From the IMG/VR virus record IMGVR_UViG_3300033067_001258, positions 1-24,286 of that record: a DNA stretch of 24,286 nucleotides; one strand, 5' to 3'. A model generated the notes under the pieces. The model was not told the origin of the DNA, made no database searches, and saw only the letters and a program-made list of their open reading frames with translations. Within the stretch, counting starts at the first letter, position 1. Each line of letters begins with the position of its first letter. Source of the stretch: a virus. Lineage: Duplodnaviria; Caudoviricetes. Positions 20,396 through 23,248 of the stretch are shown here, one piece after another. Made by a program: the position numbers and the translations under genes.

Positions 20396-21249
20396 GCGTT
20401 CTCCTTGAAAACGTCCCGGATGCGCCGGGTGGTGATGTCGATCTGGTTCTGTCGGATGTCGATGCCGATGGCGTTCCGCCCGTGCTTCAGCGCCGCGAGG
20501 ATCGTGGTCCCCGACCCGCAGAACGGGTCCAGCACCGTCCCGCCAGGCGGGCAGCAGGAGCGGATGAAGAACTCGGGCACCTTCTCGGGGAACGGAGCCT
20601 CGTTCTCATGCGCGAGCTTGTGGCCCATGTTGCCGCCACCCGCAGCACCGCAGTCGATCACGTTGCCGGGGTTTGCAATCTGAGGAGGACGGAAAAGTCC
20701 GTCCCGAAGTCGCTCGCCGTTGGGCTTACGCCGCGTTTGAACTTTTGCGTTGATCCGCGAGCCGTCCGCAAGCCGGTGAGACGGAGGGCCACCCGGGCCG
20801 TAGACCGGGGGCTTGCCCATCGCCGTGTTGTCGCTCCACGGCAGCCGCCCATGCGTCGCGCACACGCAGAACTCGTAGTCGTTCCGGAACCAATCCGGCC
20901 CGCCGCTGCCGGGGATCCCCACACGCGAGTACGCCGGAGGCTTCCGCAGCTTCACCCCGCGCCGGTGCAGATCCGCCATCATCAGCGCCGGAGTCGCCGA
21001 CCACTGGTAGTCCCGCGTCTGGCCCTCCACGACCCAGACCACGGCACCCCGCGAGACCCGGTAGCACTCGATGAATCGCTCCACCGCCCAATCCACCCAC
21101 GCCTGCCCGGACAACGCGAACCCGATGCCGTAGGTCCGCGCGGACTCGTACGGCGGGCTGGTCACGATCAGGTCCACGCTCGCGTCGGGCATGCGCCGCA
21201 GACGTTCCAGGCAGTCGCCGACGAAGAGGTTGTAGGTGCCGCCCTTCAT
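20392..21249 (-). CDS. DNA N4-cytosine/N6-adenine methyltransferase, beta class
   Basis: GDCLE...DLIVTSPPY (motif IV) precedes APFPE and VLDPFCGSGTT (motif I). SPPY favours m4C. Confidence 0.93.
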   Translation of the reverse strand: MKGGTYNLFVGDCLERLRRMPDASVDLIVTSPPYESARTYGIGFALSGQAWVDWAVERFIECYRVSRGAVVWVVEGQTRDYQWSATPALMMADLHRRGVKLRKPPAYSRVGIPGSGGPDWFRNDYEFCVCATHGRLPWSDNTAMGKPPVYGPGGPPSHRLADGSRINAKVQTRRKPNGERLRDGLFRPPQIANPGNVIDCGAAGGGNMGHKLAHENEAPFPEKVPEFFIRSCCPPGGTVLDPFCGSGTTILAALKHGRNAIGIDIRQNQIDITTRRIRDVFKENA

Positions 21250-23039
21250 GCGCTCACCGCCTTGCGCTCAATGCGACCTCTCGGGAACGAGCTCGACACC
21301 AGCGCTCGAACCACCTTCGGATGACACGCGTTGCCGATCAGCCGAACCGCCTCGCGCTGGGTCTTCGGCCAGATGTACCCCGGCGGGAACCCCATCGCCG
21401 CGGCCAGCTCGCGGGGTTTGAGCATCCGGAAGAGGATGTCCAAGATGACGTACTCGGTGCCGGCGATCGCCACGCACACCAGCCCGTGCCGGTCGCGCGT
21501 CGTCACGGTCCCGAGCGGGTCGCTGGCCTTGTGCCCGCCCGCCTCCGACCCGTAGAACTTAATCATCAGCGCCGCCACAAGCGCTGCGTGCCCGCCGCCG
21601 GACACGACCGTCCGCAGCGGTTCACTCACGCCGCCGGTCTGCTTCTCGCCGTGGTTGAGATAAGCCAGCACCGGAGCCACCAGCCCGGTCTGCCCGCCCG
21701 TGGTCACGGTCGGCGTCGGGGCGGTCACCGGCCCGCCGGTGTGATGGGTGGTGTTGTGCATCAGCACCGGGGTCACCACCGCCTGCTTCGCCCCGTTCAC
21801 CGCCGTTCCGAGCAGATCGCCCACGGCCTGGCACCGCGGGCGCTGGCCTTCACGCTCGCCGTAGCCCGTGGTGGCCAGCACCGGCGCGATGATCGCCTGG
21901 TGCCCCTTGGTGGTGATCGTCGGCCCGGGCTCATCGACGCGCTGGCCGAACACCCCGCCGTTCTGGGGCGCGATGATCGGCGTGCACACCGCCAGGTCCT
22001 GCCGCGTCGTCTGCGTCGGCATCGGATCATCGACGCTCGACACCTTCCACCCGCGGCCCTCACCTGTCTGCGTCACGCGCAACAGGAACGGCGCGGGGTC
22101 ATTCAGGACGTAACGCCGGATTCCCTCCGCGATCCGCGCGAGCGTTTTCTCTGCGAGCGGGCGGGGGCGGTCAAAGATTGACCGGCCAAGGTCGGACCAG
22201 TCGATGATTTCGGCTGCAGCGCGGTACTGAGCAACGGGCCCGCGATGGCTTGAACCACGCCTCCGAGCATGGCCGCGATCGCTTCCGCGTCCCCCTCCGC
22301 CTCCACGCTCACCATCTTGATCGTGATCTTGCTTCCCATGTGTCGCCTCCGGCCAGCAGATCGGGAGACCGTCGCGCCTGGCCTGCACGTACAGCCGCTT
22401 TCTCCGGCTCGCCGACCCGAAATCGGCGGCCTCGATGATCTTCCACTCCACCACGTACCCACACCGCTCCAAGCTGCGCTTCCAGCGCCGGAACGTCTGC
22501 CCACGCTTCTCGGGCACGGGCTCAAGGATCGGGCGGCCCGCCTGGTCCTTCACCACCGCGCCGGCCTCATCCGTCCGCGCCCGCACCGGCCCCCACTCGA
22601 GGAACTCCGGCACGTTCTCCACCCAGATCACCCGGGGGGACGCCGCGGACTTGGCCCACTTCACCACCACCCAAGCCAGATCGCGCACGCGCTTGGACAC
22701 CGGCGCCGAGCCGCGGGCGCGGGAGAAGTGTCGGCAATCGGGCGATGCCCACAGGCCCGCGACCGGACGGCCAGCCGCCACCGCCTCGGGCCGGTTGCTC
22801 CACACGTCGCCGTGCCGGTGATTCGTCCAACGGTGGTTGGCCTCGTGCGTCTCGATCGCGGTCTTGCAGTGGTTGACGCACTCGTGCACGATCAGCCCGG
22901 CATCCTCGATGCCCTGCGTCGCGCCGCCGCCGCCAGCAAAGAGATCCACGATGATCTCGTTTGAGGCGACCGCTCCCAACTCGGACGCGGCCACACGCAT
23001 CCGAATCGCAGCGTCGAAATCCAGCAGCCCGCCCTTCAT
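21246..23039 (-). CDS. DNA cytosine-C5 methyltransferase (phage type)
   Basis: Motif I DLFAGGGG, IV SPDC, VI ENV, VIII RRKRLY, IX RMLKPRELAAAMGFP, X IGNA. ATG 23039 has an AAGGAG SD, which the track start 23081 lacks. Confidence 0.93.
   Translation of the reverse strand: MKGGLLDFDAAIRMRVAASELGAVASNEIIVDLFAGGGGATQGIEDAGLIVHECVNHCKTAIETHEANHRWTNHRHGDVWSNRPEAVAAGRPVAGLWASPDCRHFSRARGSAPVSKRVRDLAWVVVKWAKSAASPRVIWVENVPEFLEWGPVRARTDEAGAVVKDQAGRPILEPVPEKRGQTFRRWKRSLERCGYVVEWKIIEAADFGSASRRKRLYVQARRDGLPICWPEATHGKQDHDQDGERGGGGGRGSDRGHARRRGSSHRGPVAQYRAAAEIIDWSDLGRSIFDRPRPLAEKTLARIAEGIRRYVLNDPAPFLLRVTQTGEGRGWKVSSVDDPMPTQTTRQDLAVCTPIIAPQNGGVFGQRVDEPGPTITTKGHQAIIAPVLATTGYGEREGQRPRCQAVGDLLGTAVNGAKQAVVTPVLMHNTTHHTGGPVTAPTPTVTTGGQTGLVAPVLAYLNHGEKQTGGVSEPLRTVVSGGGHAALVAALMIKFYGSEAGGHKASDPLGTVTTRDRHGLVCVAIAGTEYVILDILFRMLKPRELAAAMGFPPGYIWPKTQREAVRLIGNACHPKVVRALVSSSFPRGRIERKAVSA
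22103..22339 (-). CDS. Putative overprinted 78-aa protein nested in the +1 frame of the C5 methyltransferase
   Basis: GGAGG-6 nt-ATG; MGSKITIKMVSVEAEGDAEAIAAMLGGVVQAIAGPLL...; GC3 codon bias switches to this frame. Confidence 0.5.
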   Translation of the reverse strand: MGSKITIKMVSVEAEGDAEAIAAMLGGVVQAIAGPLLSTALQPKSSTGPTLAGQSLTAPARSQRKRSRGSRRESGVTS

Positions 23040-23051
23040 GCCCAGCTCCTT

Positions 23052-23248
23052 GGTCCCGCTATCGCCCGTGCCCGGAACCACGGGACGGGCAACACACCCG
23101 CCCCGTGGCCCCCGGTTTGTCCAATCCCGCCAGCCGCCTTTCAGCAGCGGGCGGACCTTCCTGAGACCTAGAGGGACGGGTCACGGCTTCCCGGCGCGCG
23201 CTCACCCGAGCGAAGGTCCGTCCTCTCACGCCAGCGTTCCGCGCTGGC
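23052..23248 (-). ncRNA. Candidate structured cis-regulatory RNA leader of the methyltransferase genes
   Basis: Dense set of stems with G-U pairs that form only on the minus strand, a GAAA tetraloop and mutually exclusive pairings; no family recognised. Confidence 0.45.

Follow-up and report, generated by a model that had tools for sequence, protein, structure and literature searches.

Genes nested in another frame of a larger gene are known in phages, such as E in D of phiX174 and Rz1 in Rz of lambda, both of them overprinted. Overprinting is taken here in the sense given in the accessible text of PMC8227390 and PMC6195259. Other described systems also resemble the locus reported here, as far as the accessible parts of their publications go. 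Overlapping alternate-frame insertion (OAFI; Leonard et al., bioRxiv 10.1101/2024.11.07.622342) is a synthetic arrangement in which both genes stayed functional; no natural case is named in the accessible text. In M.EcoHK31I, a beta chain which supplies motif IX is encoded in an alternative frame inside a C5 methyltransferase gene (PMC2836561). The PeSL cassettes of T4-type phages consist of conserved expression signals flanking variable unknown genes, which are shuffled by recombination (PMC2839356). For out-of-frame remodelled genes of E. coli, the out-of-frame fusion or insertion of transferred genes has been proposed to be tolerable (PMC8788219); the word methyltransferase is absent from the main text of that paper.

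The stretch of DNA analysed here (the window) is a complete virus record of 24,286 bases with about 67% GC, and it encodes, among others, a portal-like gene, a RuvC-like gene and two adjacent methyltransferases. The 24 kb record seems to be partial. The locus of interest lies in the C5 DNA cytosine methyltransferase, whose features are listed in Table 1. This enzyme matches PF00145 and carries motifs I, IV (catalytic PDC, Cys102), VI (ENV), VIII, IX and X in order on a single chain, residues 538–580 aligning with motifs IX–X of solved enzymes. Its predicted fold resembles HhaI and DNMT1, with pLDDT below 50 at residues 240–265, which lie in the insert loop, and likewise over 309–533. The catalytic halves are under purifying selection in the four pairs compared (dN/dS 0.10/1.08, 0.06/0.59, 0.28/0.85 and 0.22/0.64). 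In a loop-free tree, a quick version without bootstraps, the enzyme groups with that of a Phycisphaerales genome bin (SH-aLRT 98), which points to Phycisphaerae as the probable host.

Table 1. Features of the methyltransferase locus in the window.
Feature	Position	Strand	Basis
C5 DNA cytosine methyltransferase, outer gene, 597 aa	21246..23039	minus	PF00145 (E 1.6e-27), phrog_116, motifs
SD-like GGAGG, made by enzyme P-E-A codons, 6 nt upstream of inner ATG	22346..22350	minus	sequence
Inner start ATG, His (CAT) plus first G of next codon	22337..22339	minus	same position in relatives
Putative passenger insert, 37 codons, +1-coded	22227..22337	minus	codon use, structure model
Run-on tail of inner ORF, 41 codons to TGA (22105-22103)	22103..22226	minus	codon score, variants
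Whole inner ORF P0002, 78 aa / 78 codons	22103..22339	minus	ORF list; no homologue found

Some other features of these enzymes are worth recording. The adjacent N6/N4 methyltransferase (PF01555, 20392–21249) shares 4 bases with the end of the C5 gene, which couples the two. The variable region of the C5 enzyme (21450–22100) is made of repeated units P-x-x-T-[IV]-T-T-x-x-x-x-x-[LV]-V-x-P, whose number seems to vary across relatives (lengths of about 400–1000 aa); model confidence is low there. In many members of the clade (P0005-P0075 alignment A1), motif IV reads A-S-A-A-C and not the usual P-x-C or P-C, with an invariant cysteine. One relative of 996 aa (P0093) has a short loop and an extra PF14890 (intein splicing) domain. 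Seven loci (L173, L282, L306, L309, L314, L316 and L327) present a different, cysteine-rich insert (CxxC...CP) preceding the AA motif. It resembles an in-frame zinc-binding domain, and several of its carriers are actinobacterial.

An earlier note on this DNA had pointed to a stretch of the methyltransferase which looks off-frame, with codon use unlike that of the rest of the gene, and to the +1 frame over the same bases, with GC-ending codons. Both observations hold. The enzyme frame reads the 37-codon insert as a loop rich in G, R and D following motif VIII. Third-position GC in this frame is 0.46, whereas the flanks have 0.91 and 0.89; at the first position, equivalent to the third of the +1 frame, the insert has 0.86. 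We scored codons with a table drawn from 18 further genes of the window. For the insert this yields −0.57 when read as enzyme and +0.39 when read in +1, a gap of 0.96 bits per codon which is reached in 0 of 5550 overlapping control windows (mean −1.30, sd 0.42). The GGAGG, the ATG and the final TGA are present as described, and the enzyme frame has no internal stop from 23039 to 21246: a small gene-like frame does lie where the enzyme is variable, and the frame of the enzyme itself is intact. The proposed extent is right only in part, as the +1 coding signal is confined to the first 37 codons or so of the inner ORF. The basic tail of 41 codons scores as enzyme (0.16 in the enzyme frame vs −0.41 in +1), and 10 of its 12 variants are silent in the enzyme frame, compared with 1 of 12 in the +1 frame. 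The tail is a +1 shadow of conserved enzyme codons, without constraint of its own.

Openness as such is no evidence in the window, where codon permutation keeps the +1 frame open with P = 1.0. That frame is also open for 70 codons upstream of the inner ATG, a region with no +1 coding signal by codon score. RNA folding around the inner start gives no signal (z 0.95), and a single-sequence model of the peptide predicts a helix at 18–41 followed by a low-confidence tail. An assembly artefact is unlikely, since two contigs (depth 48 and 277) cover 21200–23100 without any difference; both come from one study and may be the window's own source. A weak +1 codon score was also seen at 1323–1500 of the window, in the poly-glycine C-terminal tail of a 704-aa tail-region protein, where it probably reflects low complexity.

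Alignment of homologues, proposed as a check, confirms the extra loop and shows that in relatives it is filled with unrelated sequences. Among the best 120 of 1544 homologues, selected for full-length enzymes, 118 could be parsed and 2 could not. A long loop of 40–117 aa after WPExTH is found in 69 of the 118, including the window, while 49 have a short loop; natural lengths range from about 13 to 117 aa. The 69 long loops split into 63 unrelated groups (E<1e-3). They are enriched in G, R, S and D and depleted in L, I, F, M, Y and W. For protein-only loops we used back-translation, which is only a screen since it recovers 39% of known inner residues; in this screen, the best possible +1 coding score exceeds that of the adjacent enzyme segment in 68 of the 69.

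The content of the loop changes much faster than the enzyme. We compared 52 enzyme pairs with 85% identity or more around the loop, and only two share a loop at p<0.01. Seven pairs reach 98% identity or more; in six of them the loops are unrelated, in one case as a borderline result (p=0.05). A clear example is the trio P0004, P0007 and P0008, with enzymes 99–100% identical and unrelated loop cores of 30, 66 and 85 residues. Enzymes which are nearly identical yet hold unrelated loops indicate that turnover at this site outpaces enzyme divergence. The tree needs 13 gains or losses of a long loop, at least 6 of them forced by well-supported branches. The ancestral loop was short, and close relatives of these enzymes exist with nothing inserted.

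At the DNA level, first locus searches gave mostly distant short-loop enzymes. Pattern and genome searches led to 457 sequences including the window, with the left anchor present in 330. The right anchor was sought in any frame, and 21 hits without it were left out. This gives 231 distinct loops, 217 short and 14 long. The genome-sourced long loops come from overlapping class and order samples around the Phycisphaerales bin, in 6 of 15 and 5 of 13 matching genomes, respectively. All 14 long loops show the arrangement of an alternate-frame insertion: their length is a multiple of three, the enzyme frame has no stop, and the +1 frame is open and scores best. The +2 frame has stops in 13 of them. 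None of the 14 +1-coded inserts, which we call passengers, has an internal +1 stop, and in 5 of the 14 such openness is to be expected by chance (P above 0.85).

The boundaries of many passengers are written in enzyme codons. In 12 of the 14 long loops the start is the ATG at the position of the His codon. The stop falls exactly 6 codons upstream of the AA motif in eight cases and at 5 codons in one, as a TGA or TAA spanning an L-K or L-T pair. The remaining five passengers, including that of the window, run past the insert before stopping. In L452 (1896–2096) the passenger extends from the His ATG to the boundary stop, and the enzyme is broken by a frameshift just upstream, either real or a sequencing error.

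The earlier note had warned that the GGAGG might be a mere by-product of the conserved PEA codons. This is answered in part: among the best 120 of 1544 homologues the enzyme motif is SD-compatible in 66 of 69 long-loop relatives, compared with 12 of 49 short-loop ones. The long-loop motif is W-P-E-[V/K/A/R], and the same 66 permit GGAG plus a purine. Pro at position 4 of the motif is found in one of the 69 and in 29 of the 49. In the DNA itself, an SD-like word is present in 9 of 11 long loops vs 20 of 121 short ones. In GC-rich genes, the ATG forms in 9 of 10 long loops vs 23 of 73 short ones, and the His is encoded by CAT in 9 of 10 long loops, compared with 35 of 167 (21%) His codons elsewhere. 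The p-values for start and SD are overstated, because the sequences counted are kin and not independent. A similar SD word precedes 12 of the 24 other genes of the window. In L403 Tyr replaces His and the ATG is kept; L277 has CAC at the His codon and its own GGAG and ATG further in. The empty loop of L175 already spells an SD, an ATG, a few codons and a stop. In view of these codons, the start signals look maintained.

Several passengers give indications of their origin and fate. Out of seven tested by tblastn, two match annotated phage genes (L415 and L405) and five, the window's included, do not. For L415, 56 records of Microbacterium phages match 80% or more of the passenger, the best with 44% identity over 97% (E 5e-12); the match reaches the last codon of the ordinary gene 89. 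For L405, the passenger's matches lie in three cyanophage records, in the N-terminal part of an ordinary gene (E 3e-6). In the stretches inspected, these homologues sit away from annotated methyltransferases, and the genomes carrying L405 and L415 contain no donor copy. To judge from the matches, these two passengers are of independent, foreign origin. The L277 passenger has a PHROG match (E 2.7e-4), the one in L262 no match in viral contigs, and 16 passengers compared with each other gave no non-self match. Two of five nested peptides looked up are already on record as called proteins.

A different fate is seen in L276 (2300–2580), where only enzyme residues 223–289 or so are retained and the methyltransferase is deleted on either side of the loop. 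This locus occurs in five records (also L067, L278, L338 and L373), identical over the 700 bases compared. There the passenger stands free within an operon of small ATGA-coupled genes, itself joined by an ATGA overlap, and the +1 shadow of the enzyme motif forms the end of the preceding gene. A search with the L276 core found only itself, plus atlas hits under 0.9. This passenger and the P0003 loop belong to one family (z 26, with 26 of 39 positions compatible); P0003 is the closest relative of the window's enzyme. From its surroundings, the L276 passenger is to be read as having outlived its methyltransferase as a free gene. Since it stands free while most of the enzyme is deleted, passengers can outlast their host gene.

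The window's own passenger is less well supported. Searches with P0002 or its first 41–42 aa, as the earlier note suggested, found no homologue in viral contigs, 1.84 billion representatives, PHROGs or Pfam. For P0002, the same result was obtained in a word-index search of longer proteins, in the ESM Atlas, in phage records and in 351 Phycisphaerae-class genomes. Such searches are weak for a nested peptide of 40 aa, which gene callers skip. Relatives of this passenger may sit in the loops of P0004 and P0017, weakly suggested by z 6.7 and 6.2 over 25 shuffles (p 0.002 and 0.11, uncorrected for 69 comparisons); the comparison with L276 is not significant (p 0.07). A variant of the window passenger is found in two wastewater runs which belong to a single study, on contigs of depth 10.5 and 3.6. 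One of the six insert changes listed is silent for the enzyme, vs 21 of 30 in the flanks (p=0.024), the flanks coming from other contigs. In the +1 frame 3 of the 6 are silent, where 24% are expected, which is not significant, and none of them creates a +1 stop. Other metagenome contigs contain a close relative with a short empty loop and another which diverges just after the ATG-G into a different frame. As the boundary stop is missing and the frame runs on for 41 codons, the window passenger may be a shortened or 3'-fused copy. The evidence for the family is strong, that for the window's own peptide moderate.

In many relatives, then, the slot is filled with unrelated +1-coded sequence, the enzyme frame is open, and the starts and many of the stops fall at fixed codons. 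We consider it likely, from the sequences compared, that the loop after motif VIII is a hypervariable slot for foreign +1-coded DNA, and that the 37-codon insert of the window is one captured passenger, probably translated from the RBS and ATG contained in the enzyme codons. The mechanism would be as follows. The enzyme codons W-P-E-x-T-H-G spell GGAG-N-ATG and, at the far end, L-K, L-T or L-I spell TGA or TAA, so that the ends of the slot would resemble both ends of any small phage gene. Recombination at such short matches could swap the few codons between the ends for a whole gene. Many captures should leave the enzyme frame open, because GC-rich genes are often free of stops in their −1 frame, and selection on the enzyme would purge the rest. 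Ordinary genes of this phage are open in −1 in 66, 50 and 39% of windows of 37, 65 and 90 codons, vs 30, 11 and 3% in +1. The conserved halves of the enzyme might then act as homology arms for the exchange of passengers between phages. The passenger is predicted to be translated from the enzyme mRNA, and passengers are predicted to be accessory proteins without a role in methylation.

A stronger version is tentative, and we hold it to be somewhat less likely than not: phages of Phycisphaerae might have made the loop a standing platform for gene capture, with remodelled RBS, start and stop, boundary-precise loading, swap arms, and selection on the enzyme which shields the passenger from frameshifts. 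If this were true, genes called DNA methyltransferase would conceal dozens of expressed but unannotated genes for host takeover or anti-defence.

The main rival to foreign capture with translation is that the captured gene pieces are neutral filler in a permissive loop. The frame in the window would then make no useful protein, and starts and stops would be aligned only through short-match recombination at gene ends. The orphan state of P0002, the absence of a boundary stop in the window passenger, the lack of significant +1 selection in its variant, the very fast turnover and the many cases in which +1 openness is expected by chance all agree with this. It does not account well for the shift of the enzyme motif to SD-compatible codons, with Pro at position 4 almost gone from long-loop enzymes, nor for an ATG which persists through the change of His to Tyr, or is supplied anew in L277. 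The absence of internal +1 stops in all 14 passengers and the persistence of one passenger as an operon gene after enzyme loss also speak against it, and we regard neutral filler as unlikely.

Much less probable is that the enzyme was formerly encoded by two genes which flanked a small third one, the halves being re-fused later by read-through, so that the nesting is a relic of fusion. The 3' junction, with the passenger TGA over the enzyme xTG-A, does have the geometry of ATGA coupling. However, no enzyme split into two genes at the slot is found among the 231 distinct loops, L-K also occurs in the short loops of distant relatives, and the 5' junction is out of frame for a normal overlap. Many separate fusions would be required, or else swapping anyway.

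That the inner peptide serves the methyltransferase as an accessory subunit or a regulator, in the manner of the M.EcoHK31I beta chain, was one of the options in the earlier note, which had itself doubted a beta chain of that type; nesting in an alternative frame of a C5 methyltransferase is indeed what is described for that chain in the accessible text of PMC2836561. Here that doubt is borne out, since motifs IX and X lie on the main chain. An accessory role of any kind is highly improbable, because near-identical enzymes hold unrelated passengers and close relatives hold none; the passenger homologues, moreover, lie away from annotated methyltransferases in the stretches inspected. Among the options originally offered, an unrelated peptide fits best, its suggested anti-defence role being putative.

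Least credible of all is a de novo overprint of the existing loop, which was the original interpretation, or the C-terminus of a +1 frameshift product. The orphan status of the window peptide and the openness of its +1 frame well upstream of the ATG are what either would allow. Overprinting finds no support, because the insert follows the codon use of the inner frame and not the outer one, the inserts of relatives are unrelated, and two of them match ordinary phage genes; the ancestral loop, besides, was short. The +1 codon use of the insert, together with the swapping of unrelated inserts, indicates that the frame arrived as foreign coding DNA. A frameshift product is disfavoured, since the upstream +1 frame carries no coding signal and in L171 and L297 is closed by a stop two codons before the ATG. 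The upstream open length ranges between 1 and 99 codons among relatives, and a search for slippery runs gave none. A compensated double frameshift of the enzyme is rejected: the inner peptides do not resemble the enzyme, and the loop was short in the ancestor.

The proposed capture of foreign genes in the slot may now be set against the systems mentioned above, as described in the accessible text of each paper. Like OAFI (bioRxiv 10.1101/2024.11.07.622342), it would place an entire inner gene, with its own RBS and in another frame, in a presumably tolerant loop of an open outer gene. OAFI is engineered, with genes recoded to remove stops and an RBS added, whereas the methyltransferase slot is natural and recurrent and takes its putative RBS and its ATG from the outer codons; the register is also opposite, the inner gene of the slot being shifted by one base and not by two. 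With M.EcoHK31I (PMC2836561) it shares a second polypeptide encoded wholly inside a C5 methyltransferase gene in another frame. On the other hand, motif IX is on the main chain here, where residues 538–580 carry IX–X, and the phages do not have the same inner frame: the nested chain is not conserved, with 63 groups in 69 loops and no non-self match among 16 passengers. PeSLs (PMC2839356) are repeated intergenic units of promoter and stem-loop, while the slot is single, intragenic and bounded by translation signals, with an open outer frame. The E. coli genes (PMC8788219) are new genes with off-frame pieces, and not a fixed site hosting many whole genes with both frames preserved.

No published report of this slot turned up in a literature search, which covered few subscription papers. 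In print, out-of-frame insertion into a working gene was found only as an engineered method. The slot also points to hidden phage accessory genes largely missed by annotation and to a methyltransferase loop which would accept over 100 arbitrary residues. A single site with more than 60 distinct inserts, along with a case of a passenger that outlived its host gene, makes it possible to test how gene overlaps arise, persist and disappear.

As in the E/D pair of phiX174 and the Rz1/Rz pair of lambda, a gene with its own start is fully nested in another frame. Those pairs are fixed and arose by point mutation in an existing gene, whereas the overlap in the slot is imported and the partner changes: the overlapping DNA is not ancestral and does not have outer codon use, as would be the case for an overprinted de novo gene. 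Long nested genes of viruses are usually explained by overprinting; the methyltransferase slot represents a repeated natural case of out-of-frame insertion of whole genes.
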